Origin: an uncultured Chloroflexia bacterium
GTDB lineage: Bacteria; Chloroflexota; Limnocylindria; Limnocylindrales; CSP1-4
Direction: 5' to 3'
Length of the DNA: 64,000 nucleotides
NCBI GenBank assembly: GCA_963714675.1
Contig: CAVQPG010000004.1
Location: 563,184-627,183, forward strand
The notes under the pieces were generated by a model that saw nothing but the letters and a program-made list of their open reading frames with translations, did no database searches and was not told where the DNA came from. The position numbers and the translations under genes are program-made. Position 1 is the stretch's first letter. Each line of letters starts with the position of its first letter. This document shows, in pieces, positions 15,013-40,970 of the stretch.

Positions 15013-15027
15013 GTCGAGTCGGTGCCC

Positions 15028-16911: not shown

Positions 16912-17577
16912 GTGCCTCGACCGATGCTGAAGCAGGAACGCCCCCACCGCCGCCTCCGCGGCCTCGCCGCCGCCACCATCGTGGCTGGCCTCACGCTGTT
17001 CCCTGCTGGTGCAGCCATGGCCGTGGACACCGGGGCCGCTGAGGTGGAACCCGCGCTTACCGACAGCGTCGCCGCCACCGCCACGGTCGACGAGCTGCGC
17101 ACGATCGTCGCGGATCTGAGCACGGCCAATGACGCCTTGACCGCGAATAACATGGACCTGCAGGCCACGGTCGACACGCTGGCCCAGGAGCGCGACCGCC
17201 TGGCGGCCTCGATCGAGCGCTTCGACGAACTCTACGACCCAATCGAGTCCGACCGCCAGCTGCTCTTCGAGCTGCGCAAGCAGCTACCCGAGACCCGCCC
17301 TGAGGCTGAGGCCCAGCTGGCACGTATCCGTTCGCTGGCCCTGTCCTCCGATCCCCAGCGCCTGGGCCAGATCGTCGAGCGCGTCGATCGAGCCGCACCG
17401 GCCTTCCTCGACTGGCGCTTCGGCGACTTCGAGACCACCCAGGAATTCAGCGCGGCCTACGTCGAGACCGGCGCCAACGCCTTCGACAGCTCCTTCGAGG
17501 AGCTGCGCTCGGAAGCCCTGATGACCGTGGCCAATCGCCTCGACGGACTGCTGACCATCCTCGACCGGGTCCGCTAG
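16912..17577 (+). CDS. Secreted coiled-coil protein with a Tat-like signal peptide (RRLRGLAAATIVAG...AMA)
   Basis: N-terminal RR motif, hydrophobic stretch and AxA site. The remainder is helical and Ala/Leu/Glu-rich. First gene of a plus-strand operon. Confidence 0.5.
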   Translation: MPRPMLKQERPHRRLRGLAAATIVAGLTLFPAGAAMAVDTGAAEVEPALTDSVAATATVDELRTIVADLSTANDALTANNMDLQATVDTLAQERDRLAASIERFDELYDPIESDRQLLFELRKQLPETRPEAEAQLARIRSLALSSDPQRLGQIVERVDRAAPAFLDWRFGDFETTQEFSAAYVETGANAFDSSFEELRSEALMTVANRLDGLLTILDRVR

Positions 17578-17614
17578 CGCGGCCTGCCAACTCCCAGACC
17601 CGACAAGGAGAACG

Positions 17615-25711: not shown

Positions 25712-26803
25712 GCAGCTGGACCCGGGCGGACGGGCCGCTGCTGCGCATCGAGGAGCTGTCGGTGCGCTTCTACGTGCGCAAGTCGTTCTTCAGCGCGCGG
25801 CCGATCGCCGCGGTGACCGAGGTCTCGCTGGACCTCGCCATGGGCGAGACCGTGGCGGTGGTCGGCGAGTCGGGCAGCGGTAAGACGACGCTGGGCCGGG
25901 CCACGTTGCGCCTCGTGGATGCCGCCGCGGGTCGGGTGGTCTTCGAGGGCACTGACATCGCCGCGCTCGAGGGCGCGGACCTGCGCGCCTTCCGCCACCG
26001 CGCGCAGGCCATCTTCCAGGATCCGTTCTCCAGCCTCAGCCCCTACATGCGCGTGGGCGAGCTGGTCGCCGAGCCACTGGTCATCCACGGGCCGACGGAC
26101 CGCGAGCAGCGCGAAGCGGCGGTCATGCGAGGCGCTCGAGCAGGTGAAGCTCTCGCCGGCCGGGGACTTCGTCGAGAAGTACCCGCACACGCTCTCGGGC
26201 GGCCAGCGCCAGCGGGTCTCGATCGCCCGGGCCATGGTGCTCGAGCCCGACTACCTGATGGCCGATGAGCCGGTCTCCATGATCGACGCCTCGAGCCGCG
26301 CGGAGATCCTGTACCTGCTCGCCGAGCTCCAGGAGCAGCGAGAGCTGACCTTCCTCTACATCACCCACGATCTCGCGAGCGCACGCCACTTCGCCGACCG
26401 CATCGCGGTCATGTATGCCGGGCGCATCGTGGAGCTGGCGTCGGCCGATGTCCTCATCGAGGACGCCAAGCATCCCTACACCAAGGCCTTGCTCGCTGCG
26501 GTGCCTGCCCCGGACCCGGCCAACCGGCTACGACAACGCCCGGTGGTCGGTGGTGAGCCGCCCGATGCGGGCGACCTGCCGCCCGGCTGTGCCTTCGCGC
26601 CGCGCTGCCCGGTGGCCATCGCCGGCACCTGCGAGCGGGAGGTGCCACCGCTGATCGAGCTCGAAGGTGGCCACCAGGTGGCCTGCCACCTCTATCCGGC
26701 CGCCGCGGTCTCCACGGGGTCAGCGGATGCCTCGGCCTCCTCGGCGTCCGAAGACAGCACCTCGAGCGCGGCCAGCAGGAAGGGATCCTCCGCCTCCGGA
26801 TAG
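25708..26803 (+). CDS. Peptide ABC transporter ATP-binding protein (DppF/OppF-like), frameshifted near 26115
   Basis: GESGSGKTTLGR, LSGGQRQR, LMADEPVSMIDAS. The C-terminal ~100 nt overlap the convergent peptidase gene, so the true stop is probably earlier. Confidence 0.7.
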
Positions 26804-28067
26804 GCCAGCCAGTCGGCTTCGACCGATGACGTCAGGGGTCACGCCCACGCCCTCGAGCGTCTGGCCGTCCGGCAACTGGAAGCCGTAGGAGACGATCTGC
26901 ACCAACGACCCATCGGGGAGGTCGATGCTGGCGGCGCCATGCGTCTGGCCCGATGTCGCCTCGCCCACGATGGTGGCCCGGCCCTGGTCCTGCAGGATGG
27001 CCGCGAGCTGCTCGGCGTCGGCCTCGGTCTGCTGGTCCACGAGCACGACCACGGGCACGTCCGCGTACTGGGCCGCGAGGTCGTTGGGCTCGATCTCGAT
27101 GGGCTCGTTGCCGACGCGCGAGTGGTACTCCCCCACCTGCCCTTCGACGAAGGTCGCGAGCGTCTCGAAGACCACGCCGGGTGCACCCTGGTCGGAGGCG
27201 CGCAGGTCGAGCACGAGGCCCTCGAGCGGATCATCCCGAAGCAGCTCCGTGAGGCCCTGGTCGATGCCGTCGACCGCCTCCTGGCCGGAGAGCGCCAGCA
27301 CCTGCAGGTAGCCGATCGAGGGAGCGGAGTCGAGGCGGCGTGCCTCGGGCGCGATGACGGGGCTGATGCGACGTCGTTCGAGGGTCACGTCCCGGGGCTC
27401 ACCCCCAGGCGAGACCACCGTGAGGGTCACCTCGGTACCGGCCGGACCGCGGATGTCGACGATGCGGGCGCACGAGTCGCCCTCGACGCCGATGATGCGG
27501 TCGCGCGCGACGATGCCGGACTCCCTGGCCGAGCCACCGTCGAAGACGTAGAGGATGCGTAGCCCCTCGCTGTCTTCGCCCGCGGCGCTCGTGTCGAGCA
27601 GCGCGCCGATGCCGCCGTACGACGGGTCGAAGGCAGCCGGGTCACCAAGGTCCTCGGGCGCGTAGTAGTTGGTGTACGGATCGTCGAGCGTCTCGACCAT
27701 CTCGCGCAGCAGCTCGTAGACCTCGTGGGCGTTGTCGGTGGCGATGACCAGCTGGGCGTACTCGTCGCCGATGGCCTCCCAGTCGAGGCCGTTGGTCTCG
27801 GGATCCACGTAGTAGTCGCGGATGCCCTCCCACACGCCGTCGAAGAGCGTGATGCGGAAGTCCTCCGGCATCGAGAGCGCCTCGTCGGTGACGGGCGCCT
27901 GGGTCGCCTCGGGCTCGACGCACTCGGCGTCGGCGGATGATGGCGCAGACGCAGGCACGGCAGACGGGCTCGCTTCCTGGGCGGCCGACCGGGCCCAGGG
28001 ACAGGACCAGAGCGGCCGGCAGCACCAGCAGCACGGTGGTCAGCGATCGGGGCGTATGGGGGCGCAT
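26693..28067 (-). CDS. S41 family C-terminal processing peptidase (tail-specific protease-like), N-terminal signal/lipobox region; frameshifts near 27950 and 26810
   Basis: PDZ plus S41 core (GYLQVLALSG, VVVLVDQQTEADAEQLAA, TIVGEATSGQT). The N-terminus MRPHTPRSLTTVLLVLPAALVLSLG lies in an adjacent frame. The alternative C-terminal frame ...VEADWLAYPEAEDPFLLAALEVL ends near 26693. Confidence 0.65.
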
Positions 28068-28161: not shown

Positions 28162-29793
28162 CTATGGCTGGTTGCAGAGCTCCACCCCGGTACAGGCAGC
28201 ATCGAGCCGAACGGTGCCGACCTGGTCGGGCTGCGGGTAGTTCTGGATGAGCTGCGCGCCGCCGGCGTACTTCACGGTCCACGCGATGAGTTGGCCGACT
28301 TCACCCACCTGGCTGGTGTTGTCGCCGTTGACCTGGACGTTGTCACTGGGCGCATAGACGATGCCCGAGACAGCCAGGTTGCCATTGCCGGGCAGGTTGA
28401 CCGTGTTGTTGGAGGTCGTGCAGCTGCCGATATCCAGGGGCGTCATGCTCCCGGCTCCGCCGAAGCACGCATCATCGCGCGGCACCTCGATGCTGATCAG
28501 CAGGCCCTCATGCGACTTCACCTCACGGCCGAGCCAGTCGAGGGCCGGCAAGGAGCGGCAGCTGTCCTCCGTGCAGGTCTCGCCGCCCTGGTTGATCCTG
28601 AGTGCCACGGAGTTGTTGCCGGCGAGGTCGGCATCCTGTGGGACGACCAGCACGACACCGTTGGCTCCCGTCACGAGACCGCCCATCAGCGTCCCGCCCA
28701 CGTCCAGTCCCTTCTCGCCGAAGTAGTACGCGCCGGGCAGCAGGTAGGCCACGTCCGTGTTCTGGGGCACGTTGAAGCCCTGCTTGTCCATGTACACGCC
28801 GGGCAGGTAGCAGACCACGTCGAACGCCGGGTTGGCCAGGATCGACGTGTAGTCCGATGGGAACCCTTCGGTGCCCGGAGCCGGACACGCCCCGGGACCG
28901 TTGCCGGACACCGCATCCCAGCGTCCGTCTTCCTGGTCGCTGAAGACCGGGGCCGCCGGCAGCCCATCGGCTGGGTCGCCGTCGAAGTCGGCGATCAGGT
29001 AGTCGGGGTCGTGGATCAGCTTGCGAAGGAGCTTGCCCTCCGGAAGCCCGTTGACCTGGTTCCAGGGGTCGGGCGAGATGTCGTCGATGTGGTCGATGCG
29101 GTAGCCCGAGGCGAGCGTGATGCGGCCACCCGAGTTGGTGAAGGCGCTGGTATTGGTGCCGACGTCTCCCCGCGGCACATCGACCCAGGTGTTGGTCCCG
29201 TCGACGCTGATGTTCTCGCGGTTCTGGTCGATGGCGTTGGGGAGTGGATGCGGTGGCCGCAGTGTCTGGACCGCGTACCGGCCGGAGAACTGGAGCCCGG
29301 CCACAGCCGTCGCCTGTACGTTCCAGTTCGCCTGGCCGGCCAGCCGCGCGAAGGTCAGGCCGTACGACGGATTGCGGATGGTGACCTGCACCGACCGCGC
29401 AGGCTCGCAGTCGACACAGCTGGGCGACGGCGTCTTGATCGAGACGAGGTACGGCGTGCCCGGTAACGCACAGCCGACGATGTCGAAGTCGGGCTCACAG
29501 CCACTGCCCGCAGGCGTGGAGGTGGCCCCCAGTCGCTCGACCAGCACGTCCATGGCATGTCCCCTGGCCCGCCCATATTCCACGGTCGTGACCGCCCGGC
29601 TCTTGGCCTTCTGCAGGTCCTGGCCGCCAGCGAGGGCAGCCGCGTCCGCCGTGGTCGTGTAGAAGCGCTCGGCCGAGAGCACACCGGTCACATCGACCGC
29701 CAAAGCTGCGACCAGCAGCAAGGCGGTCATGAACAGCGCGGTCAGCGGAAGGACCTGGCCCAGCTCGTTGCGCGCCATCAGCGGGCCCCTCAA
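28162..29793 (-). CDS. TadG-like protein: Tad/Flp pilus-assembly TadE/G-like N-terminus with a large beta-helix-like extracellular domain
   Basis: N-terminus LTALFMTALLLVAALAVDVTGVLSAERFYTTTADAAALAGGQDL matches the TadG-type membrane anchor. 543 aa with a Gly/Asn/Thr-rich repetitive C-terminus. Confidence 0.6.
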   Translation of the reverse strand: MRGPLMARNELGQVLPLTALFMTALLLVAALAVDVTGVLSAERFYTTTADAAALAGGQDLQKAKSRAVTTVEYGRARGHAMDVLVERLGATSTPAGSGCEPDFDIVGCALPGTPYLVSIKTPSPSCVDCEPARSVQVTIRNPSYGLTFARLAGQANWNVQATAVAGLQFSGRYAVQTLRPPHPLPNAIDQNRENISVDGTNTWVDVPRGDVGTNTSAFTNSGGRITLASGYRIDHIDDISPDPWNQVNGLPEGKLLRKLIHDPDYLIADFDGDPADGLPAAPVFSDQEDGRWDAVSGNGPGACPAPGTEGFPSDYTSILANPAFDVVCYLPGVYMDKQGFNVPQNTDVAYLLPGAYYFGEKGLDVGGTLMGGLVTGANGVVLVVPQDADLAGNNSVALRINQGGETCTEDSCRSLPALDWLGREVKSHEGLLISIEVPRDDACFGGAGSMTPLDIGSCTTSNNTVNLPGNGNLAVSGIVYAPSDNVQVNGDNTSQVGEVGQLIAWTVKYAGGAQLIQNYPQPDQVGTVRLDAACTGVELCNQP

Positions 29794-30272
29794 ACCGGCT
29801 CGGGTTCCATGCGGAACTCAGCAGTAGTCGTCAACTGACCGTCACCTGGCACCAGCGGGAAGAAGATGGGGATCTGGTGTTCGATCTGGACCTGCACCCA
29901 CGCTTCGTCCTGGTTGGACGCTGGTGGACAAGGCTCTCCGGTGTCCCGAGGCCAGGACACCTCGACCTTGTTCGTGGTGCCGGTCCCTCCGTTGGCCCAC
30001 AGGTCCGTGGAGTAGCCGAAGAGCGTGGAGTTGGCTGCGATGTCGTTGGCTGCCTGGGTGACCAGCGACGTGTTGCCGTCACAGTAGGTCTGCGTCGCAG
30101 CCCAACGGCCGGTGTCACGTGCGATCTGGGTCAGCGTCTGCTGTGACCAGAAGATCAGCCCGAACTGGACGATGCCGGCCACCAGGAAGAAGAAGACGGG
30201 TATCACGAGCGCGAACTCGGCCAGGGCCTGGCCACGCTGGTCCACGGTGGACGGATGTCTCGTCGGGTCCAC
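29790..30272 (-). CDS. TadE-like pseudopilin-type protein
   Basis: RGQALAEFALVIPVFFFLVAGIVQFGLIFW, the TadE-family N-terminal motif. 160 aa. 4-nt overlap with the TadG-like gene. Confidence 0.7.
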   Translation of the reverse strand: MDPTRHPSTVDQRGQALAEFALVIPVFFFLVAGIVQFGLIFWSQQTLTQIARDTGRWAATQTYCDGNTSLVTQAANDIAANSTLFGYSTDLWANGGTGTTNKVEVSWPRDTGEPCPPASNQDEAWVQVQIEHQIPIFFPLVPGDGQLTTTAEFRMEPEPV

Positions 30273-30687
30273 GACGCTTCCCCACCGATCGCGCCGCTGC
30301 CCTTCGCAGCATGTTCATGTTGTTGCCTCGTTGCGGCGATATCTGCCGTGCTGCAGGCGAGCACGACCTCTGACGTGATGCCACGGGCGCATCCGCCGCG
30401 GGTCGATGGCCAAAGGCTAGGGGGAAACGCGCGACACGGGCAGAGCACCTTGGGGCCATGCCCACCGTACGACCGTCCGGCGGGGCGGCCAGGCGCCCTC
30501 GCTCCGGGCCAGGGATCCACTCGTTCGCCGCGTTCCGCTCGAACGCTTCGCGCAGCTTGTGCCTGTGGTCGACAATGGACCCTGACAAAGCATCGAAGGT
30601 CGCGGGCAGAACGGCACTTGCCGCTCTCTCGAGGCACAGGCGATCGTTGGCTACGCCGAGTCCACTCGGCAGAAGGGAGGCTCGTCG

Positions 30688-31299
30688 GTGTTCGACACCA
30701 CCGCCGCGGACACGATCTTCCTGGTGTGCGCGCTCGTCGGCGGCGGCCTGCTGCTCATCACCGTCCTGCTCGACGACATCCTCGGCGGCATACTCGAGGT
30801 GCTCGACTTCGATGTCGGCGGCAGCTCGTTCGTGCCCATCCTGCTCGCCTTCGTGGCCATGTTCGGCATCGGCGGCCTGTTCGGCACGCAGGTCCTCGAC
30901 CTCAGCAGCGGGCAGGCGGCGTTCGTGGGCGTCATCGCCGGCCTCGGCGGGGCGGCGCTGGCGTATGGCATGTTCCGCTTCCTGCGCAGCGCCGTGACCG
31001 AATCGCCGTTCTCGCAGGACGATCTCGTGGGCCGCGACGCCTACGTCTCGGTGGCCATCCCCAAGACCGCCTGGGGCACTATCTCGATGGAGGTCGAGGG
31101 CATGACCCAGGAGTTCCGCGCCACCTCCTCGGTCGACATCGACCGCGGCCAGATGGTGCACATCAGCGGCGTCGCCGGCAACGGGCTCATCGTCGAACCG
31201 GCGACGGCCGCGACGACCGAGCCCGAGGCTCCCGACCGGCACCGAACCCGATACCACCGCATAGCCCTGCGCGGGCGGCAGACCGGCCGCCTGCGCTGA
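30688..31299 (+). CDS. NfeD-like (YuaF/YqiJ-type) membrane protein with a C-terminal OB-fold
   Basis: GTG start with a GGGAGG RBS. Two or three TM helices, then the OB-fold signature DLVGRDAYVSVAIPKTAWGTISMEVEGMTQEFRATSS...GQMVHISGVAGNGLIVEP. Confidence 0.7.
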   Translation: MFDTTAADTIFLVCALVGGGLLLITVLLDDILGGILEVLDFDVGGSSFVPILLAFVAMFGIGGLFGTQVLDLSSGQAAFVGVIAGLGGAALAYGMFRFLRSAVTESPFSQDDLVGRDAYVSVAIPKTAWGTISMEVEGMTQEFRATSSVDIDRGQMVHISGVAGNGLIVEPATAATTEPEAPDRHRTRYHRIALRGRQTGRLR

Positions 31300-31324
31300 C
31301 GTCCCCGCAGCAGGAGTAGGAGCC

Positions 31325-32759
31325 ATGGAAATCGGCAGCGAAGTCCTCATCATCTTCGGCATCATCGTCATCGCGGTGCTCATCGCGATGTTCGTGAGCT
31401 CGCGCTACAAGGTCGCGAGCGCCAACGAGGCGCTCGTGCGCAGCGGCCAACGCGGCAAGGGTGAGGAGCTCAAGGTCGTCCGCGGTGGCGGCATGATGGT
31501 CATCCCGCTGCTCCACGACCTCGGCCGGCTCAAGCTGACCGCCCGGCAGATCTCCGTACAGCTGACCGACGCGGTCACCAGCCAGGGCATCAAGGTCGCG
31601 CTCGAAGGCGTGGCCACCTTCAAGGTCGGCGCTGACGAGACGTCGATCCGCAACGCCGCCGAGCGCTTCCTGCAGACCGATGAGGCAGAGGTCGACGACA
31701 TCGTCAAGAACGTCCTCGAGGGCTCGCTGCGGTCGATCGTCGGCACGCTCACCGTCGAGGAGCTCAACCTCGACCGACAGAAGTTCCAGCAGGCCGTGCA
31801 GTCGGCCGCCATCGGCGACCTGGCCACCTCCGGCCTGGTCATCGACAGCTTCACCATCCAGGCCATCGGCGGCGAGGCCCTCCAGTACATGGAGCTGGTC
31901 GGCCGTCAGGAGCTGGCCCGCCGCGAGCGCGACGCACGCATGGCCCAGGCGACCGCCGACCAGGAAGCCCGCGTCCGCGAGGCCGAATCCGAGCAGATCA
32001 AGCTGAACGCGGAGCGGGGCGTCCAGCTCCGTGAGGCCGACGTCAAGCAGGAGACCGACACGGCCCGCGCCAAGGCCGGGCAGGCCGGTCCGCTGGCCGA
32101 GGCCCAGGCCACGCAGGAGGTCGTGAAGGAGCAGACCAAGCTGGCCGAGCTGGCTGCCGAGCGCAAGGCCAAGGAGCTGCTCGCGAGCACCGTGCGGCCG
32201 GCGGAGGCGGAGGCGGAGGCCGTGGTCAAGCGTGCCGACGGCGACCGCCTCGCGGCCATCGCCGCGGCCCAGGCCGAGGCCGAGAAGATCCGCCTCCGGG
32301 GCGAAGCCGAAGCGACGATCATCCAGGCGCAGGGACAGGCGGAAGCGGCCGCCCTGGAGATGCGAGCGGACGCCTACAAGCACTTCAACGATGCGGCCAT
32401 CCTGGCCACCATCCTGCGCGACCTGCCCGGCCGTCGTGAGCGCAGCGGCCGACCCCATCGGCAAGATCGACAACCTGACGGTGCTCTCCACCGACGGGGC
32501 CTCGGAGATCGTGCGCACCGCCACCACCAACCTGACCCAGGCCGGTCACGCCATCAAGGGCCTCACCGGCATCGACATCCCGCAGGTCTTCGGCAACGCG
32601 CTCGACAACGCCAACCTCACCGGCACGTCAGAGGAGCGGGCCCTCCGGGCCCGGACGGAGCCTGCGACCGCGACTGAGGTGGACCTGGCCGCCGGCAACG
32701 AAGGCACGGCGCCCACAGAAGAAAGCGGCCCGGACGAGGCCGAGCCGCAGGAGGACTGA
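31325..32759 (+). CDS. Flotillin (SPFH-domain, FloT/YuaG-like), C-terminal frameshift near 32440
   Basis: N-terminal TM, SPFH domain, long Ala/Glu-rich coiled coil. The C-terminus DLPAVVSAAADPIGKIDNLTVLSTDGASEI continues in ORF 32232-32759. The nfeD-flotillin pairing is conserved. Confidence 0.8.
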
Positions 32760-33029
32760 ACCGAGCGCGTCGCGCCCGAGTTCCTCGGTCAGTCGGTGCC
32801 GAACGACACCTTGCAGGTCATCGTGGCCTTGCCATTCTTGGTGACCGTGGCATGTGAATCCGGTCGTGAGCATGAGCCCTTGCTCGCGCGGCAGGTACAC
32901 GTAGCACATGAACCCGGAGTAGTGCTGGGTGCGCCCGCTGTCGTTGGCGGACCTCGCCCTGACAGGTCATGACCGCAACGTGGTCGTTCTGGACGACATG
33001 CGTGAGGGTACCTAGCGCCACCGAGGAGC

Positions 33030-33170
33030 TCACCCTTCGAACCCGCACTTGCCATCCCGCAGTGCGCCCAGGTCGCGGACGACGATAGCCGGATCGGCGG
33101 AGGCCGGGACGGCCACCAAGACCGTCGAGGCCAGGGCCACACCGAGAGAGAGGCTGATGATCTTGCGCAC
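33030..33170 (-). CDS. Small secreted peptide ORF not in the ORF track: Sec signal peptide plus a 21-aa mature peptide; possibly the start of a longer frameshifted Cys-rich secreted protein
   Basis: GTG start preceded by GGAAGGAGAG. Encodes VRKIISLSLGVALASTVLVAVPASA|DPAIVVRDLGALRDGKCGFEG. High-GC3 coding-like segments continue in two other frames down to 32789 (...CATCTCRASKGSCS...TMTCKVSFGTD). Confidence 0.35.
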   Translation of the reverse strand: MRKIISLSLGVALASTVLVAVPASADPAIVVRDLGALRDGKCGFEG

Positions 33171-33286
33171 GGCTGCGCTCTCCTTCCCGCGCCCGCTACG
33201 TGCTGATCGTTCGGCCCGCGGGCGTTCGGGCCGAGGTGCGTTTCAGGCAGAGTCCTGTTCGACAGGCTCAGTGCCGGAGTTCGACC

Positions 33287-34372
33287 TCACCGGTGGCGTC
33301 GAACTTGAACGAGCCGCCGGGGGCATCGCAATACTTCTTCGTCGGGCTCGGACGGGTCCTGGCAGGCGAGCTCGTCGACTCGATAGCCTTGCAGCCACTT
33401 GGCGTGCTCGGTACCTGAGCCCGTGAGGACGATGGCCCCGTAGCCCACGATGTCGTAGTACGCGTTCGTGCCGTTGGCGTTCGGGTCCAGGGGCGTGCTG
33501 TAGATCGGCACCCACACGGGAACCTTGTTGTCGATGTAGTGGCTGAGGTCGCCCCATTCGTTGCCGGTCAGTGCGCCGATCTTGTTCTCGTTGACCTCGC
33601 CGTTGGGACCAGGCTCACCGACTCGTCCGCAACAGCCGTGCGAGTTCGGCTCAGGCCAGATCTGCGATTGCAGGAAGGGCTGGTTGCCCTGACAGCCGCC
33701 ATCGGCGACCATGCCCAGGCTGTAGCCCCAATCGCACTTGCCGCCGTTGCCGTCGAGCCCGAACTTCAGCCAGCCGAAGTTGCCGGGCGCGATGAGCTCG
33801 CCAGGCGTCAGCGCCTGGAAGCAGCTGCCCAGGGTGTGAGCATCGCAATCAGAGAGGTCGTTGTAGGTATCGTCTTCGATGCCCACCGGCAGGATGCCGC
33901 CGCCCGTGCTCTCTCCAGTGGTCATGGCCGTGGCTGTGGCGCCGGCGATCCAATCGGTGATGCCGATCGCCCCGAGCAGGAAGGGTTGCCAGTTGGTGCG
34001 TGCCTCGACGACGACGCCGAACGCGTCGTCGGGGATGCTGGTCTCGGTGGTGACATCCCCGAGATCGACACCGGTGTGGTCGACGTACCGGGCCGAGACG
34101 ATCTCGCTGTCGTTGGCGGCAAGCGTCGAGGTGATGGCCTCGCGGACGTTGGCAACGGTGCCCACGCCGGCTGGCCGGCCCGTGATCGACGCGCCGATGA
34201 TGCGCGCACCGGCCATGGCCGCGAAGTCGGCCGCGTTCTGTGCTTGGCGGCGCTGGGCGAAGGCATAGCCGCCGTCGACCACGACCGCCGAGGCGAGGAC
34301 GATGGCCGTGAGCGAGATGGCGAACAGCGCCAGCGCCTGGCCCCGCTGTCGTTCCCGAAGGGACGTTCGCAT
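33287..34372 (-). CDS. TadG-like protein (TadE/G-like N-terminus plus a Cys/Gly-rich extracellular domain)
   Basis: N-terminus RGQALALFAISLTAIVLASAVVVDGGYAFAQRRQAQNAADFAAMAGARI. 361 aa. The C-terminal end may be frameshifted. Confidence 0.6.
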   Translation of the reverse strand: MRTSLRERQRGQALALFAISLTAIVLASAVVVDGGYAFAQRRQAQNAADFAAMAGARIIGASITGRPAGVGTVANVREAITSTLAANDSEIVSARYVDHTGVDLGDVTTETSIPDDAFGVVVEARTNWQPFLLGAIGITDWIAGATATAMTTGESTGGGILPVGIEDDTYNDLSDCDAHTLGSCFQALTPGELIAPGNFGWLKFGLDGNGGKCDWGYSLGMVADGGCQGNQPFLQSQIWPEPNSHGCCGRVGEPGPNGEVNENKIGALTGNEWGDLSHYIDNKVPVWVPIYSTPLDPNANGTNAYYDIVGYGAIVLTGSGTEHAKWLQGYRVDELACQDPSEPDEEVLRCPRRLVQVRRHR

Positions 34373-34382
34373 CGCTGTCTCC

Positions 34383-34969
34383 CTAGTTGATGATCATCGT
34401 CGCGGAGCCGCTGAGCGACGTCGATCCGATGAACGAGCTGACGATGGGCGTGAATAGGTCGTAGGTGTACTCGACGCGCACGCTCACCAGCTCCCCAGTC
34501 GCAGAGACCGGATTGCCCGCAGCCGTCGTCGCATCCGTTGCCGCCGACGACCTCGGTCCAGGCCCCGATGGGCGCCAGATCCACGCCGCTCCCGTCGTTG
34601 CAGCTGACATACACGGAGGTGATCGGGCCCACGGCCACGGTCATGCGCTGGACCGCGTCGGAGATGTGCGACTTGAACGCATCGAGGTCCACCGGGCACA
34701 CGTGTGCGCCGGGCCGACTCGACGTGATGCCACTCTCGTCGGGCACGCACGCCGGATGGGTCGAGCCGATCCAGCGTGCCTCGGCCGCAGCGAGGCGAGC
34801 TCCTTCACGAGCGGCCTGCGAGAGCGTGGAGTTGGTGTAGACCAGGCGGCCGACGTCGACCAGGCCGAACACGACCAGCAGGAAGACCGGCAGCACGAGG
34901 GCGAACTCGACCAGCGTCTGGCCACCTTCGTGTCCTTGACGGTCGCTGCTGGTCGCGATGGCCGAACAT
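34383..34969 (-). CDS. TadE-like pseudopilin-type protein, split by at least two frameshifts
   Basis: ATG overlaps the upstream stop (TGATG). Reconstructed: MFGHRDQQR | QGHEGGQTLVEFALVLPVFLLVVFGLVDVGRLVYTNSTLSQAAREGARLAAAEA... | ...ELVSVRVEYTYDLFTPIVSSFIGSTSLSGSATMIIN. Confidence 0.55.
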
Positions 34970-35855
34970 CAGTTGTTGTCCACCGCCATGTCCGACGAGC
35001 AGAGGACGATCGAGTTCGCCGTGAGGGTCTGGCTCTGGATCTTCAGCGTGCCGGCGAGGTTCGTGAGCGTCCCGGTGAAACCGGCACGTTCCCACACTTC
35101 CTCCGCGGATACGCCCCCGACATCATTCCAGTGGGTGTGCCAGTAGTTGGGCACGCTGCACGTGGGGGTGGGCGTCGCCGTGGGCTCCGGCGTTGGCGGT
35201 CGGTTCGGGCGTCGGCGTCGGGGTGGGCACCGGGATGCCGGGCGTCGTCGGCGACGGCGTGGGCGTCGGAGAGGGGTCGGCGTTGGCGTCGGTGCGAGCG
35301 TCGGAGACGGGGTAGGCGTGGGCTCCGGCGTTGGGGTCGCGATCGCCAGGATCTGCGTCACCGCGGGGTTCAGGACCGGCGCCGTCGCCGAAGCAGACAG
35401 CGTCAACTGTCCGCCGACGATGTCGCCGATGAGCGGCGTCAGGAAGGTGAAGGGCCGGCTCGCCGACACCGACACGCGGTTGCCGGAGCCGGCGGCGAAG
35501 TTGGCGGCTGTATTGCAGGCCATCGTGGTGCCCGACGTCGGCTCGAAGCATGTGGGAGCGGTCACACTCAGGGCGCCCTCGCCTCCCTGGCCCTGGACGT
35601 TCGCCTCGGTCGGCAGCCGCGCGAGCCACGTTGGACTCGAACGCTGGTCTGGTTGTAGTCCCAGTCGGATGCATGGGTGGCCGCGTAGAACGCGCCCTCC
35701 CGTGCAGCATTGTTGACGGCCACGTAGGTGAAGAACAGCCGGCCGAAGTCCACGGCCAGCAACATGATCACCAGCATCACCGGTGCCACAAGCGCGAACT
35801 CGACCAGTGCCTGACCACGCGCGGAGTCGCGGGCAGAGCTACGGCGAGACAGCAT
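34969..35855 (-). CDS. TadE-like protein with a Pro/Thr-rich linker and a C-terminal PASTA-like domain; frameshifted
   Basis: N-terminus MLSRRSSARDSARGQALVEFALVAPVMLVIMLLAVDFGRLFFTYVAVNNAAREGAFYAAT. Linker PTPEPTPTPSPTLAPTPTPTP. C-terminus CSVPNYWHTHWNDVGGVSAEEVWERAGFTGTLTNLAGTLKIQSQTLTANSIVLCSSDMAV. Confidence 0.55.
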
Positions 35856-36110
35856 CGCTTCGGCGGGTCCTTTCTTCCAGGTCTACACATGGCTCGGATC
35901 GCCAGGAAGAGTCGCTAGGGCGCGGGCGTTCCGACCGGATAGGTGTAGAAGATGCCCCGTCGAGGACCCGACTGGCGCCTATACGGATGGCCCCCGTGCG
36001 GTCGTACGACCGGGGGCCCGGACCACACCTATGCGCGCCTCACCACACCAAAGCACACAGCCGGAACCGACGAACGTCTCACGACGCGGGCTGCGGTGCA
36101 GTAGACAGGG

Positions 36111-36159
36111 CTATCTATCTATGTTGCGCTATCTATCTATGTTGCGGCCACTTGTGGCC
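36111..36159. repeat. Perfect 18-bp tandem duplication (ctatctatctatgttgcg x2) abutting a 6-bp-arm palindrome ggccacTTgtggcc, inside a lower-GC 600-bp intergenic island
   Basis: Read directly at 36111-36146 and 36146-36159. Lies between the stop of the TadG-like gene (36461) and the start of the TadE/PT/PASTA gene (35855). Confidence 0.8.
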
Positions 36160-36460
36160 AACGACCTGGCGACGTGGCTTTGGGCGGGTTACAGCTCTAT
36201 GCCGAGCAGGGCTTGCGGTTCTGGGCTGGCGGGAACCGGAAACCGTCGTCGACATCCCACAAGCCCTTCGGCGCCGCGTTGGTCCTCAAGACGCACCAGG
36301 AGGAGACCCCACGTCGGTGTTCTGCGAGACTTCCGCGCCTTAGTCGTGGTGCCTCAGCTATTTGTCCGTGTTACGCGCCGGGCCGGTGCACACCGCGTAG
36401 AGCGCGGGACGAAGAGGCTGTCCGCCCAGATGTACAACAGAGTGCCCGTCCGAAATGCCG

Positions 36461-37717
36461 TTATCGACCCGTGCCTTGCGCTCCTTCTTGTGGGCACTCA
36501 GTGAATGAGCTGAATACCGATGAAGTTCGTGGGAGATGGATAGTCGGATCGCCGGGGTCGTAGAGCGGCCCAACCGTCGTGTTCTGGTAGACGTCCTCCA
36601 CGAAGGTTCCCACCAAACAGGACGTGCCGCCGCTGCCCGAGGGCGTACTTGGGTCGTTGTCGTCACACTCGGAGGAGTTCTGGCCGGTCAGGTAGGACCC
36701 ATAGGGCGTGCAATTGGTCGGATTGTCCGGCCCTCCACATAATCGGAATGCACCGACGCCTACGAAGTGGTACCAGTTGTTCTGTCCCTGACCCCCGTTG
36801 CACTTCTCTTCCTCGGTTTCTGGGTCATAGCCCGGGTCTTCCTCGCAGGTGTCATCGAATAGCGGGATATAGACTACGTCGCCGTCCAATGAGCGCAGTG
36901 CATCCTGCACCTGCTTGCTGTTTATGTTTCCCGTCGAGGTCACGTAGTTCCATGAGGGCACGGTAATGCCGTCATTGCAGCCTGGGGTGTTGAAGGGGTC
37001 CTCGATGCAAGACGCGGAGTTCGCTCGTTCCTCCAGCGGTGGGGGTCCAATCGATCCAACCCACGTTGCCGGAAGCCGCGTTCTGGCAGAGCGGGATCTT
37101 GTACAGGGTTCCCGCTTCCCAGGGCATGGGCTTCCCAAAGTCAGGATGTTCTGGGTCAGGATTTTCTGGGAAGAACGGCCTGTTCTGGCCGTCGCATGCC
37201 ACGATGTTGATTGGTGGTGTGACTGGCAAGACCCCGAAGCGCGGAGACCCACTCTCGCCGGTGATGGCAGTGGCGCTCGTGACCGCGGTGAAGGTGTCGA
37301 GGCCGAGCACGCGTGCGAAGTAGGATCCGAACTGTCGCTCACCAGTGACGGCGACTCCAGCCGCCCCTTCTGGTATGACACCGGAGGGGTTCCCGACCGA
37401 TGTCGGCATGGGTTCCCCGTTGATGTTTGTGTATACGGCCTCCTGGACAGTGACCTGCATATCGGACGCGGTCGCGCTGAGCGCGGCCAGCACGTCGTCG
37501 TCGGATCTCGACTCTCCCCCCAATCGCTCGGCCAGCACGGTCGTCCCGGCAAGTGCCGCCGCGTCGGTGCCGTTCTGCGTCCACCGCTCCTGCGCCCAGA
37601 CGTTGCCGCCATCGACTACGAGGCCGATCATCGCGATGATCGCCAGGATCCGATCGCGAATAGTGCCAGAACCTGCCCTCGCTCGCTTTGGCGTCGGTCT
37701 CTTGAAGAGGCTGACAT
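36461..37717 (-). CDS. TadG-like protein, frameshifted near 37630
   Basis: ATG at 37717 with an AGGAG RBS: MSASSRDRRQSERGQVLALFAIG joins MIGLVVDGGNVWAQERWTQNGTDAAALAGTTVLAE (ORF 36972-37631) and the Cys-rich C-terminal part in ORF 36461-37612. Confidence 0.55.
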
Positions 37718-37749
37718 GTTTCGTCTCCTGTGTCTGGGGCTCAACGTGA

Positions 37750-38214
37750 CTACTCTGGGTCGGCGAAGAGTCGTTCGACTGGCATCGTGGTCGATGCCTC
37801 TAGATCGAACGGGTCGAAAATCAACGAGGCCAGCGGCGTAATCGGCGTCCACGTGTGTCTGACGGTGACGGTGATGTCGCAGCCACTCGTCTCACAGGTG
37901 TCGCTGTCGAGGGCATCGAGATCATCGATCTCGGCGGAAGTAACGCCAAAGGCGCCACCGTGATCCACGGCAGCACACTTGAAGGTTCGCACAGAGACGC
38001 AGTCAGTCGCGTCGTTGCTCTGGTTGACGATGGCTACGCGGGCCCCCTCCCGAGAGGCGTTCGCCAACGTGGTGTACTCGATGACAAGGCGTCCACCATC
38101 GATGAGGCCGAAGACAAGAAGCGCGAAGATGGGCAAGGCAAGGGCGAACTCGACCAATGATTGGCCGCCACTTTGCGAGGGCGCCACTTTCGTCAGAGAG
38201 ATCCTCATGTTCAT
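37750..38214 (-). CDS. TadE-like pseudopilin-type protein
   Basis: SGGQSLVEFALALPIFALLVFGLIDGGRLVIEYTTLANASREGARVAIV. 154 aa, intact. Confidence 0.7.
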   Translation of the reverse strand: MNMRISLTKVAPSQSGGQSLVEFALALPIFALLVFGLIDGGRLVIEYTTLANASREGARVAIVNQSNDATDCVSVRTFKCAAVDHGGAFGVTSAEIDDLDALDSDTCETSGCDITVTVRHTWTPITPLASLIFDPFDLEASTTMPVERLFADPE

Positions 38215-39221
38215 GGCTTTCCGCCACCGGGATTTGGACCCACAGTAATCTCCGAGGCGCAGTCCACTTCAGTTGGGCCGCCCACGAGCGACTGAGATTG
38301 GATGGTGTAGTCCTGGCCTGCCGGCGGGCGGAAGATGACCGAGGTCGTGAACCCCGCTTCATCCCAACTTGCCTCAGCGAGGCTCTTGAGCGTGCCTGAG
38401 AAGTTGGGGACCTCACACGTCAGCGGATCCGAGGGTGGCTCTGCGTTTACGTCGACAAGGACATCAAGTGAGAGCGAATTCTCGCAAGCCGTTCCCTCGT
38501 CCACAGTGAGCGTTACCGCATACGTCCCGTAGTCGGCGTATTCATGCACATCCGGTGTTCTCCGATTCTCCTGTGAGGTCGTCCCCGAAGTCCCAGTTCC
38601 ACGTATCAGGCCCGCCCGTTGAGGTATCCGTGAACTGGACGAAGTGCCAATCGTCTCCATTCGGGAACGACCATGTAAAGCCAGGTTCGGGACAGGTTGG
38701 AGGCGGGTTCTGTTCCTGATCCAACGTTCATACCGGTTGGAATTCGTGAAGACCGAGCGCGCACTAACCGAGAATCTGTTGCCAGACGCAGCGAAAATCT
38801 CGCCGATGATCGGCGTGATAGGTCGGAACTCGCAATCCAACTTGAGCGCAACAGGGTCGCCTAGATCCTTGCCATCGGGGAACTCGGGCGCGGGAATGGT
38901 CTCATCGCATCCGATCAGTGATGCCTCACCCTCGGCGCGCGCTCCAGACAGATGCTGGTACGTCGACTGCTCGGTCGCATCTCCAGGGGAACCCCACGCG
39001 GTGGAGTGAGTGGCCGCATAGTTAGCACCGACACGAGCCGCGTTGTTCAGGACCACCCAGCCTTGGAAGACACGCCCGAAATCGATCGCAGCGAGAACGA
39101 TAAGCAGCAGCACTGGGATGACAAAGGCCAGCTCCACGATCGCTTGCCCACTCGACCGCCACTGGGACTCAGACTTGTACGCGGTGTGGCGTGTTCGCAG
39201 CATGATGGCGAGTCGTTTCAC
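38211..39221 (-). CDS. TadE-like protein fused to PKD-like and PASTA-like domains; frameshift inside the PKD domain near 38560
   Basis: N-terminus SGQAIVELAFVIPVLLLIVLAAIDFGRVFQGWVVLNNAARVGANYAAT. PKD halves WHFVQFTDTSTGGPDTWNWDFGDD | HEYADYGTYAVTLTVDEGTACENSLSLDVLVDV. C-terminus CEVPNFSGTLKSLAEASWDEAGFTTSVIFRPPAGQDYTIQSQSLVGGPTEVDCASEITVGP. Confidence 0.55.
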   Translation of the reverse strand: MKRLAIMLRTRHTAYKSESQWRSSGQAIVELAFVIPVLLLIVLAAIDFGRVFQGWVVLNNAARVGANYAATHSTAWGSPGDATEQSTYQHLSGARAEGEASLIGCDETIPAPEFPDGKDLGDPVALKLDCEFRPITPIIGEIFAASGNRFSVSARSVFTNSNRYERWIRNRTRLQPVPNLALHGRSRMETIGTSSSSRIPQRAGLIRGTGTSGTTSQENRRTPDVHEYADYGTYAVTLTVDEGTACENSLSLDVLVDVNAEPPSDPLTCEVPNFSGTLKSLAEASWDEAGFTTSVIFRPPAGQDYTIQSQSLVGGPTEVDCASEITVGPNPGGGKP

Positions 39222-39550
39222 TGGCTTGCTCCGGGTGGCTAGTCATTGGGATCATACCGAGGCTGCATCTCAGCACGGGACTGTCAGACCACGGTGCCGA
39301 GACGTTGCAGTGAATGGTAAGGGGCCCCAGTACCAATGTGCTAGTGCCTTCGCTATAATTCCGCTGACCGTAGTCAACGGGTCCCGTACCCAATTACCTC
39401 GCCGCCACGCGCGAGTCCCAGAACTGAGTGACTCCAGAATGAGTCGCTCAGTGGCGAGGCGAGAACGCTACGGCGGAGTGGGCTACTCGCCTTGAGGTTG
39501 TCGCGCGGCACCTGGGTCGGGCAGCAGGCCACGCTCGGTTGGCCGTAAGC

Positions 39551-40132
39551 TCACGAGGCCCCGAGCTGGCCGTCCGTTAGGCGATTTGCCACCTCTTCTA
39601 CGCGTCGGGCGCGAGTATCGGCTCGTCTGGCCGTCGCAATCGATAGCAAGGAGCCACGCTGGGCGGACGGCGAGAGAGCGGCCCACCGGTCGCGCGCGCC
39701 GGGCCTGGCATCGAATGCTGCCGCCAGATCGTCGGGCACGCTCAGGTCCTCGACCGGCTCGAGGATGGTCCATGAACCGTCGGCCTTGGCGCGCTCGATG
39801 GCGGCACGGCCGGCGTCGGTCATGCGGCCCTCGGCCTCCAGCCGCTCCACACGCGCCTTGTTGGTACGTGCCCACATCGAGCCCTTGCGCCGCGGCGACC
39901 ACCACAGCGCACCACGCTCGTCGTCGATCCGTCGGTAGGTGGAGTCGATCCAGCCGAAGCAGAGCGCCTCGCACACGGCGTCCTCGTAGTCGATGGCTGG
40001 CTTGCCGGTGCGCGGCTTGTACTGGACCAGCCACACGCCCTGCGGCTGACGGTGATGTTCGGCCAGCCAGGCGCGCCACTCGGCCGCGGTCGTGAAATGG
40101 AGCTCCTCGGCCTCGTCCATGACGCGGCTCAT
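39551..40132 (-). CDS. YdeI/OmpD-associated family protein (DUF1801-like)
   Basis: Internal start MSRVMDEAEELHFTTAAEWRAWLAEHH...WIDS..., the family hallmark. The N-terminal Arg-rich extension of the ORF is rejected. Confidence 0.55.
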   Translation of the reverse strand: MSRVMDEAEELHFTTAAEWRAWLAEHHRQPQGVWLVQYKPRTGKPAIDYEDAVCEALCFGWIDSTYRRIDDERGALWWSPRRKGSMWARTNKARVERLEAEGRMTDAGRAAIERAKADGSWTILEPVEDLSVPDDLAAAFDARPGARDRWAALSPSAQRGSLLSIATARRADTRARRVEEVANRLTDGQLGAS

Positions 40133-40136
40133 CAGC

Positions 40137-40970
40137 TCAGGCCGAGCTGCCGGGGGCACGGCCGGCGACCGTCCGCCCCTCTTCCCAGACCTCCGGTCCG
40201 CAGATGAACGTCTCGACCTCCGGCCTGGCCGCGGTCGCCCAATCGTCGAAGACGGCACGATCGGCCGGCAGGCGGCCGTCCAGGAGCGCCAGCTCGAGCC
40301 ACTCGGCCGCGTCGGCCAACCGGTCCCACGGCTCGTAGGGGATGTTCTCGACCTCGCACCAGCTGGCCAGCGAGGCCTTGGCCAGGATCGACGTCGGCGT
40401 GATGCGCGGCGTACCGGTCCGAGGGGCCATCACCGACGAAGACCACGGCCCGGCCGGCGTCGCGGTGGAGCCGGATGCGCTCGCGCTTGCAGGTCCCACA
40501 CACGAAGCAGGCAGGATGGCCGTAGGGGAAGGTCACGCCGGCACCCCCCGCGCCGAGGACCGTGCGGTTCGTGGCCACCGGCAGATCGGTCACTCCGAGG
40601 CGCTCGAGCATGCGCTCGATGTGGAAGCCCATCCCGTCACTGACGATCTCGGCGGCTGCACCGGCCTCGCGCACGGTGTCGAGGAGCTCGACGAGGGTCT
40701 CATCGAGCGCCAGCGGAGTCGATCTCGCGCCAGCAGCACCTCGGCGTCGCGAGGCAGCACCTCCATGTCCCAGGCGATGAGCTCGCGCGAGCCCTTCTGT
40801 CCCGACATGTACAGCTCGTTCATCTGTCGCACGAGGTCCTGGTCCTCGACGAGCCGCGCGAGCAGCGCGTCGCCGGTGTCGTCGAGGCTGACGGTGCCGT
40901 CGAAGTCGATGAGCACGCTGACGGGCGCACCGTCGGCCTGGAACGTGGGCTGGGCTGCGGCACGGGTCAT
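40137..40970 (-). CDS. HAD-superfamily phosphatase (MtnX/PSP-like), split over three frames
   Basis: Motif I VLIDFDGTVS, motif II/III region VFVGDG(x)SDRYAA, C-terminal WCEVENIPYEPWDRL. Frameshifts near 40700 and 40430. Confidence 0.5.

Follow-up and report, generated by a model that had tools for sequence, protein, structure and literature searches.

A flotillin operon that stands between genes for pseudopilin-like proteins of the TadE/TadG type raises the question of whether the two groups of genes work together or are neighbors by accident. We followed this question in a 64,000-nt stretch of DNA (hereafter the window) from an uncultured soil bacterium of the Chloroflexota (Candidatus Limnocylindrales). 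A first-pass annotation had recognized an nfeD-floT operon at the center of this stretch and framed it in terms of Gram-positive flotillins; the host is neither a Firmicute nor an actinobacterial Gram-positive. Thus, Gram-positive lipid-raft biology can be transferred to this locus by analogy only. The same annotation proposed co-regulation or co-localization of the operon with the pseudopilin-like genes and kept coincidence as a fallback. Our analysis describes nfeD-floT as an ordinary two-gene membrane-scaffold operon, and the fallback proved to be the better reading: judged from gene order and sequence comparison, the flotillin-Tad adjacency is best read as coincidental and confined to one lineage.

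Results

Both gene identities assigned to the operon, more tentatively in the case of the NfeD domain, were upheld by Pfam, by profile and structure-chain matches, and by orthologues (Table 1). The flotillin matches Band_7 (PF01145) with 89 bits against a cut-off of 23.6 bits (E=4e-25, residues 30-212), so that the SPFH assignment stands under profile search. Flot (PF15975) is matched after frame repair, with 41.7 bits against a cut-off of 27 bits over residues 315-404 and across the junction at residue 368, whereas the as-assembled fragment yields 18.8 bits only. All 19-residue scanning windows with a Kyte-Doolittle mean >1.6 fall inside residues 1-32, which form the membrane anchor with the N-terminal sequence MEIGSEVLIIFGIIVIAVLIAMFV. 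The repaired protein of 477 aa is 87% identical to protein P0001 over 99% of its length, and along its full length it matches the cryo-EM chains of human flotillin-2 (E=2.9e-52, residues 32-420) and flotillin-1 (E=3.5e-44). The FloT equivalog model (NCBIfam NF058507) is not reached, with 236.5 bits against a 700-bit cut-off; the protein is a member of the flotillin family and not a strict equivalog of Bacillus subtilis FloT.

The upstream gene had been described as encoding a YuaF/NfeD-like OB-fold membrane protein. Its open reading frame and three hydrophobic helices were recovered, but its tail is probably frameshifted. Pfam NfeD (PF01957) gives 21.7 bits for the window protein, below the 29.1-bit cut-off; it does match orthologues (E<=0.01 in 9 of 12, lowest E=6.4e-6), with scores that all lie below the curated thresholds. 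An orthologue profile matches the structures 2K5H (E=0.011) and YuaF 2K14 (E=0.013). Hydropathy places three N-terminal helices at approximately residues 4-41, 41-70, and 77-96; a single-sequence AF2 model of low confidence (pLDDT 54.5) predicts helices at 4-39, 48-69, and 74-103 and five strands within residues 118-170, as a C-terminal all-beta domain. The predicted topology agrees with what has been published on the NfeD2/YuaF proteins that accompany SPFH2 flotillins (PMC2636767). Near 31231, one additional C probably puts the 3' tail of the gene out of frame, and the corrected protein of 191 aa, with a stop near 31265, would fit the length of five intact close orthologues (188-191 aa). The two genes run in the same direction and are separated by 25 nt as assembled, or by approximately 59 nt after the tail correction.

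Table 1. Positions of the nfeD-floT operon, its leader, and its neighbors in the window.
Feature	Position	Strand	Basis and remarks
S41 peptidase	26720-27958	-	next after TadG1, same direction
TadG1 (TadG-like)	28162-29793	-	Pfam Tad PF13400 E=2.9e-8; 4-nt overlap with TadE1
TadE1 (TadE-like pseudopilin)	29790-30272	-	Pfam TadE E=1.3e-14; leader RG/QALAEFALV; divergent from nfeD
Conserved nfeD leader/promoter-proximal region	30550-30687	+	8-locus alignment
Motif GTCGACAATGGAC	30568-30580		in conserved nfeD leader
Hairpin GCCGAG-TCCA-CTCGGC	30655-30670		in conserved nfeD leader
Ribosome-binding site AGAAGGGAGG	30671-30680		before nfeD
nfeD (YuaF/NfeD2-like)	30688-31299 as assembled	+	ORF, sub-threshold Pfam NfeD, orthologue profile
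floT-type flotillin	31325-32759	+	anchor, SPFH/Band_7, Ala/Glu-rich segment, Flot; 1-nt insertion at 32426-32429
Small secreted Cys-containing protein gene	~33170-32800	-	convergent with floT, downstream of TadG2, frameshifted
TadG2	33287-34372	-	Pfam Tad; TadE-TadE-TadG triad 33287-35855
TadE2	34383-34925	-	leader motif at 34923; frameshifted near 34520
TadE3	34969-35855	-	leader motif at 35816; frameshifted near 35610-35645
TadG3	36461-37631	-	second triad (36461-39221); Pfam Tad
TadE4	37750-38214	-	second triad; Pfam TadE
TadE5 with PKD domain	38211-39221	-	second triad; Pfam TadE
Other window-specific frameshifts	near 26120 (Opp ATPase), 34520, 35610-35645, 40388, 40715-40730, 42500		each backed by at least two relatives

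The flotillin had been annotated as one FloT-like gene. The SPFH identity holds, but the annotated interval spans 1435 nt, which is no multiple of 3, and is not one open frame. As assembled, it consists of two overlapping reading frames (31325-32677 and 32232-32759), split by a single surplus base within ctgCCCGgcc; intact reading frames of six relatives locate the switch at 32424-32431. At least six other genes of the window are frameshifted, including that for the Opp ATPase, and an alignment of 14.8 kb with the relative L013 contains 96 gap positions, nearly all of them single-base indels. The closest relatives are Nanopore-only MAGs of the Microflora Danica set that received one round of Medaka polishing (PMC12313526). 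A methylation-linked systematic error was considered as the source of the frameshifts and rejected, as no shared sequence motif is evident at the sites.

The divergent layout upstream of nfeD is as first described, with TadE1 and TadG1 on the minus strand behind a gap of 415 bp (30273-30687). Downstream, the next Tad genes do begin at 33287, but the gap of approximately 500 bp that was thought to precede them is not empty and contains a frameshifted gene for a small secreted protein. In the window, tblastn locates this gene in two frames, at 33170-32889 and 32884-32804, and it occurs in L001, L002, L005, and L013 as well. An intact orthologue (L004:3812-4189(-)) encodes 125 aa with the signal peptide MRRVISLAMGVALAVTVFAAVPASA, and the protein has no match in Pfam. 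A terminator-like hairpin on the minus strand lies inside the 3' end of floT (one hairpin, two overlapping calls).

The TadE genes match PF07811 (E=1e-14 to 5e-15) and carry a prepilin leader; a motif scan of the window found GQxLVEFAL at 30233, 34923, 35816, 38166, and 39149. Like the minor-pseudopilin genes tadE-tadF-tadG in the Tad/Flp pilus loci of Aggregatibacter (tad) and Caulobacter (cpa), the triads show the canonical gene order, N-terminal domains that Pfam assigns to TadE and Tad, and the G/QxLxE prepilin-type leader. They differ from these loci in being multiplied as paralogues, in the PKD domain of one TadE, and in their surroundings: neither a Tad ATPase (TadA/CpaF) nor TadB/TadC nor a TadV prepilin peptidase occurs among the Pfam-scanned ORFs of the 64-kb window, and a Flp-motif scan of the same 64 kb for a Flp pilin was negative. 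The Tad machinery may be encoded elsewhere in the genome. The nfeD-floT unit does not include the Tad triads.

The 415-bp spacer had been taken for a shared promoter region, a view that its conservation does not support. Approximately 135 nt nearest to nfeD are conserved in eight loci, whatever gene stands upstream, whereas the distal 280 nt are unconserved, even with L003. The hairpin in the conserved leader shows an A-T to G-C compensatory change in the 8-locus alignment. A scan of 30200-33400 found no sigma-70 consensus site, and the search of the 415-bp spacer for a shared palindromic operator returned short chance-level matches only. An Rfam scan of 28-40 kb (E<=1) gave no match.

We compared gene order in relatives, designated L001 to L020. 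Tad genes lie 0.5-1.2 kb downstream of floT in 8/8 close floT-bearing relatives (L001-L007 and L013), and the adjacency is stable within this close sub-lineage. The same eight relatives have kept Opp and S41, which are unrelated genes, just as faithfully; thus, the floT-Tad pattern reflects general collinearity. In addition, floT and the Tad genes downstream of it point toward each other, which excludes their co-transcription. The TadE1/TadG1 pair stands upstream in only three of the eight arrangements (the window, L003, and L013) that are informative, meaning that their upstream side is readable, with the window counted among the eight. Orthologous TadE-TadE-TadG triads occur in L001-L007, L013, and L018-L020, and three of these loci have no floT: in L018, the order YdeI-TadE-TadE-TadG is followed directly by S41 and Opp, and L019 and L020 likewise have Tad triads without floT. 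L018 is 77% identical to the window in S41 and 80% in the Opp permease, the same distance as L001-L007.

The nfeD-floT pair is kept in all loci whose upstream side can be read; L001-L005 and L007-L017 have it, in four different neighborhoods. Seven more distant loci carry nfeD-floT in three other neighborhoods, with Tad genes in none, and neither a TadE leader motif nor a tblastn match was found in L008-L012 and L014-L017, all of which have nfeD-floT. Conserved synteny between nfeD-floT and tad genes, the check that the first-pass annotation had itself suggested, is therefore not seen beyond collinearity across divergent genomes, and the proposed co-regulation or co-localization falls with the related genomes that carry nfeD-floT elsewhere without Tad neighbors. 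Merging L014 and L019 into one genome on the basis of their shared ENA analysis accession was considered and rejected, because an accession of this kind may stand for the metagenome assembly of one sample, and the Microflora Danica paper reports 154 samples (PMC12313526).

Discussion

The operon has the same gene order as B. subtilis yuaF-floT (yuaG; SPFH2a/NfeD2a), with a small NfeD-like gene directly upstream of a flotillin of approximately 480-510 aa, and E. coli yqiJ-yqiK belongs to the same class. As predicted for the window, the B. subtilis partner is a three-helix and all-beta NfeD, and the flotillin has an anchor, Band_7, and Flot (PMC2636767). The window differs in its Chloroflexota host, in the absence of a third, yuaI-like gene, in its low score under the FloT model, and in its sub-threshold NfeD. 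The FloA-NfeD pair of Staphylococcus aureus likewise joins an SPFH protein to an NfeD; FloA presumably falls into another SPFH subgroup (YqfA type) than the window protein, which is of the flotillin/reggie type. The S. aureus pair, an SPFH protein with its NfeD partner, is described as a microdomain scaffold that stabilizes client proteins (PMC11222466). Homology to eukaryotic flotillin-1/flotillin-2 (PDB 9BQ2, 9L3G) covers the SPFH and Ala/Glu-rich regions (residues 32-420), whereas the window has a single bacterial gene, whose product carries a membrane segment at its N-terminus and is paired with an NfeD protein.

We consider it likely that the locus contains a self-contained SPFH2/NfeD2-type operon with its own promoter, that its frameshifts are assembly errors, and that its lineage-specific adjacency to Tad genes carries no functional link. 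By analogy with the family, the flotillin would be held at the membrane by its N-terminal hydrophobic segment and would assemble into a membrane-associated scaffold by oligomerization of its SPFH and Ala/Glu-rich coiled-coil/Flot regions; the three-helix membrane protein NfeD may bind the flotillin through a putative C-terminal OB-fold domain. Transcription of nfeD-floT would start from a promoter and leader of its own within the approximately 135 nt upstream of nfeD. The frame breaks in floT and in the nfeD tail would be indels wrongly introduced in an error-prone assembly of long reads. A lineage-specific rearrangement in the variable stretch from S41 to the YdeI-like gene probably put nfeD-floT between the TadE/TadG modules. 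The TadE-TadE-TadG triad would then belong to the conserved backbone of this interval, and its variable inserts would be nfeD-floT, the TadE1-TadG1 pair, and the gene for the small secreted protein.

Taken at face value, the assembled floT, split over two frames, might be a genuine pseudogene or be read by programmed +1/-1 recoding, so that the frameshift at 32426-32429 would be biological; the same truncated product of 450 aa is found in the database (P0025, a cluster of 6 member sequences). We regard such an origin as unlikely. L013, which is 94% identical in DNA sequence, does not have the extra base and carries a different indel 113 nt upstream (matching window position 32313), a difference that argues for random error rather than an inherited lesion. 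The Opp ATPase and at least five more genes are hit within approximately 20 kb, both halves of floT retain 80-90% identity with intact orthologues and show no other decay, and ctgcccggccgtc, where recoding would have to take place, holds no slippery heptamer. Since L013 has a different indel and many neighboring genes are frameshifted, the break in floT is most likely a Nanopore indel error and not the mark of a pseudogene.

With regard to the Tad genes, a functional coupling would have the flotillin of this sub-lineage organize or stabilize the TadE/TadG proteins, with co-regulation of TadE1/TadG1 through the 415-bp divergent region. The constant adjacency in the eight close relatives is what such a coupling would predict, TadE and TadG proteins are membrane-anchored, and flotillins are reported as scaffolds of secretion machines in other bacteria, with the type VII system in S. 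aureus as one example (PMC5718613). Coupling is nonetheless improbable, as Opp and S41 have stayed in place just as well, the triad occurs in the equally distant L018 in the absence of floT, and floT stands in three other neighborhoods, all free of Tad genes, in the more distant relatives. The divergent pair is present in only three of the eight informative arrangements (window counted) and the distal spacer is unconserved; the convergent orientation precludes co-transcription, and our literature search found no paper tying flotillin to TadE. A search for literature on Limnocylindria with pili found nothing relevant. In a variant that we hold to be very unlikely, one Limnocylindria sub-lineage captured nfeD-floT and kept it among orphan TadE-TadE-TadG modules, where the scaffold would organize or stabilize the membrane-anchored pseudopilin-like proteins and might do the same for the small secreted protein. 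If true, this would be a partnership between flotillin and type IV filament proteins that has not been described before.

A further conceivable reading is a mobile or horizontally acquired island in which nfeD-floT moves together with the Tad modules, as the content between S41 and YdeI differs between relatives and the TadG3-TadE4-TadE5 module has a GC content of 58-64% against 66-72% around it. This we consider extremely unlikely: at 67-73%, the GC content of nfeD-floT itself is that of its surroundings, direct or inverted repeats that flank it occur at chance level only, no integrase or transposase is present among the scanned ORFs, and the Tad triad remains in place without nfeD-floT in L018 and L019. 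A self-contained operon beside Tad genes thus remains the preferred reading.

The nfeD-flotillin operon is a textbook arrangement, found here in an uncultured soil lineage, and its importance lies mainly in annotation. The flotillin and several of its neighbors should not be annotated as pseudogenes, because their frameshifts look like Nanopore indel errors. The link between flotillin and pseudopilins fails a direct synteny test, and there is consequently no guilt-by-association inference to propagate. The more interesting feature is the S41-YdeI interval, which is variable and contains multiplied orphan TadE-TadE-TadG triads, but this is a separate question. Intact orthologues of the second triad in L013 encode a TadG of 412 aa and a TadE with a PKD_4 domain of 349 aa.

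Identity of the nfeD-flotillin operon

The two-gene nfeD-flotillin operon was correctly spotted in the first-pass annotation and is an ordinary one, found here in Limnocylindria. The gene positions, the divergent TadE/TadG pair, and a TadG-like gene some 500 bp downstream all stood, but floT as assembled is not one intact ORF. Its span (31325-32759) is 1435 nt, which is no multiple of three. The DNA around the junction reads ...GAC CTG CCC G GCC GTC GTG..., and removal of one base at 32426-32429 fuses both frames into a 477-aa protein.

Features of the nfeD-floT region, in window coordinates
Feature	Position	Strand	Remark
TadG-like gene (TadG1)	28162-29793	-	divergent from nfeD
TadE-like gene (TadE1)	29790-30272	-	divergent from nfeD
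nfeD/TadE1 spacer	30273-30687		
Motif GTCGACAATGGAC	30568-30580		within conserved nfeD leader, 8 loci
Hairpin GCCGAG/CTCGGC	30655-30670		immediately 5' of nfeD ribosome-binding site, 8 loci
Ribosome-binding site AGAAGGGAGG	30671-30680		nfeD
nfeD ORF	30688-31299	+	203 aa, ORF list
floT first ORF	31325-32677	+	450 aa, starts 25 nt after nfeD ORF, ORF list
floT second ORF	32232-32759	+	other frame, overlaps 3' part of 31325-32677
Small secreted-protein gene	33170-32800	-	between floT and TadG2, frameshifted
TadG-like gene (TadG2)	33287-34372	-	527 nt past floT
Frame switch	near 26120		Opp-type ABC ATPase
Frame switch	near 34520		TadE2
Frame switch	near 35610-35645		TadE3
Frame switches	~40388, 40715-40730, 42500		

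The SPFH assignment, on which the earlier proposal was said to depend, holds in profile search, as the first flotillin ORF carries a Pfam Band_7/SPFH domain (E=4e-25); the second fragment has a weak Flot match. The repaired protein scores 89 bits for Band_7 and 41.7 bits for Flot (cut-off 27 bits), the latter match crossing the repair junction, and the human flotillin-2 and flotillin-1 chains align with its residues 32-420 (E=3e-52 and 4e-44). It reaches 236 bits on the NCBIfam FloT model, far under the 700-bit equivalog cut-off, and is thus a flotillin-family protein rather than a strict FloT equivalog. The NfeD assignment of the 30688-31299 product is well supported, with scores below cut-off (21.7 bits on Pfam NfeD against 29.1). 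Pfam NfeD is matched by nine of 12 orthologues (best E=6e-6), and the orthologue profile matches B. subtilis YuaF (2K14, E=0.013) and 2K5H (E=0.011). Hydropathy and a low-confidence AF2 model give three helices and then five strands, which fall within residues 118-170. Hinderhofer et al. describe this architecture for the NfeD2/YuaF proteins, weakly conserved partners of SPFH2 flotillins (PMC2636767). The analysis itself shows the domains, the operon structure, and the predicted topology. By analogy with its family (PMC2636767, PMC11222466), the flotillin would form an oligomeric scaffold on the inner side of the membrane, and NfeD would be its partner in the membrane.

Frameshifts and assembly quality

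The closest flotillins (69%-87% identity) come from MAGs labelled uncultured Chloroflexia, Candidatus Limnocylindrales, or Chloroflexota. Most of these MAGs have isolate names starting with MFD, which we take to denote the Microflora Danica project. Microflora Danica MAGs are Nanopore-only assemblies with one round of Medaka polishing (PMC12313526).

Along the intact floT ORFs of six relatives, the window changes frame at 32424-32431. Locus L013, 94% identical to the window at the DNA level, lacks the extra base at 32426-32429 but has another where it aligns with window 32313; between the two assemblies there are 96 gap positions over 14.8 kb, nearly all of them single-base indels. The window-specific frame switches (Table) are each backed by at least two relatives. 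An extra C near 31231 probably puts the nfeD tail out of frame as well; once corrected, NfeD has 191 aa, and the five close orthologues that are intact have 188-191 aa. That the frameshifted genes are pseudogenes is less likely, given the floT of L013 without the extra base and indels spread across many window genes. Sequencing and assembly indels would be the parsimonious reading of the window frameshifts, and that in floT is most likely an assembly artefact. ORF-based annotation of the window will split or under-call genes. Further single-base frameshift sites lie at ~36975 and 38500-38750, with TadG3 and TadE5 among the interrupted genes.

Tad-like genes and their surroundings

When the larger ORFs of the window were scanned with Pfam, housekeeping genes appeared on either side of the Tad/floT region. 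The left flank holds ComEC, Obg, Rho, transaldolase, CTP synthase, sugar and oligopeptide ABC transporters, a BNR protein, and an S41 peptidase; the right flank holds YdeI/OmdA-like and indigoidine-A-like proteins, pentose-phosphate genes, SbcCD-like genes, and others. Between them lie five TadE-like genes, all with a GQxLVEFAL prepilin-type leader, and three TadG-like genes, arranged as TadE1-TadG1, TadE3-TadE2-TadG2, and TadE5(PKD)-TadE4-TadG3. The scanned ORFs included no Tad ATPase, platform protein, prepilin peptidase, or Flp pilin.

In TadE5 (38211-39221, minus strand) a PKD domain follows the pseudopilin N-terminus, an unusual addition to a minor pilin of the Tad type; the intact L013 orthologue (17289-18338, minus strand) likewise combines TadE and PKD_4. 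The TadG3-TadE4-TadE5 module (36000-39600) has a GC content of 58%-64% compared with 66%-72% on either side, which suggests more recent acquisition. A TadG3-type triad directly follows floT in L006 and L007, and is distal to the TadG2 triad in the window.

Synteny and regulation

The position of nfeD-floT among pseudopilin-like genes had been taken to suggest co-regulation or co-localisation, if not coincidence. By tblastn of window proteins, TadE-TadE-TadG triads lie downstream of floT in all eight close floT-bearing loci (L001-L007 and L013). The Opp permease and S41 peptidase are kept equally well wherever the flank extends, and the floT-Tad pattern thus reflects general collinearity. The upstream TadE1-TadG1 pair is confined to the window, L003, and L013. 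The S41 gene is itself the divergent neighbour of nfeD in L004, L005, and L007, while ~1 kb of unassigned sequence (L002) or a 4.6-kb BNR-repeat gene (L001) can separate the two; L006 is cut off on this side. The stretch between S41 and nfeD acts like a hot spot for insertions. Seven more distant loci (FloT 59%-64% identical) keep nfeD-floT in three other neighbourhoods (OsmC/aldehyde dehydrogenase, carbonic anhydrase/Zn-peptidase, and pyrimidine genes/aminotransferase IV), and none of the seven gave a TadE motif or a tblastn match.

The reverse comparison started from TadG2 homologues. Locus L018 is as close as L001-L007 (identity to the window 77% for S41 and 80% for the Opp permease) and shares backbone and orientation, yet its YdeI-TadE-TadE-TadG genes run directly into S41 and the Opp operon, without TadG1/TadE1, nfeD, floT, or the small gene. 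In L019, YdeI-TadE-TadE-TadG precedes CTP synthase, transaldolase, Rho, and Obg, and several triads adjoin a two-component system in L020. The triad is therefore part of a conserved backbone beside the YdeI-like gene, and nfeD-floT, judged by gene order, is a variable insert in one sub-lineage. Conserved nfeD-floT/Tad synteny is thus not borne out.

Nor does the divergent spacer favour co-regulation. Across eight aligned loci only the nfeD-proximal ~135 nt are conserved, whatever gene lies upstream, so nfeD-floT is apparently served by a promoter and leader of its own. The distal 280 nt toward TadE1 are conserved with L013 only, and not with L003 despite its TadE1; a search for shared operator sites yielded no convincing shared palindrome. 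Downstream, the small gene and TadG2 run convergently toward floT, which makes co-transcription with it impossible. A genuine functional link between flotillin and Tad is very improbable, and the position of nfeD-floT is best explained as a lineage-specific rearrangement in a variable interval.

A scan of 30200-33400 gave no sigma-70 consensus site, and one of 28-40 kb (E<=1) gave no Rfam family. The conserved motif and the hairpin, which shows one compensatory A-T to G-C pair between loci, may serve the flotillin operon as promoter or leader elements.

Additional observations

The small gene is intact in L004 (3812-4189, minus strand), encoding 125 aa with a signal peptide and several Cys; Pfam gave no match. 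Further copies are present in L001, L002, L005, and L013 and absent from L003, L006, L007, and L018, and the gene may close the TadE-TadE-TadG unit. In the window, in L003, and in L018 (8571-12593), the gene for the S41 peptidase (tricorn-C1 type; 26720-27958 on the minus strand in the window) closely follows a TadG-like gene in the same direction, with broken pieces of both genes at the corresponding position in L013; a Tad-S41 link may be worth testing. The TadE1-TadG1 slot in L001 (4967-9170, plus strand) holds a frameshifted gene for a BNR/'DGGxTW'-repeat protein of ~1400 aa. Between its two Tad triads, L013 carries a second copy of a 260-bp floT 3' segment (14820-15077; 96% identical to window 32351-32610) that the window lacks, either a rearrangement scar or a mis-assembly.
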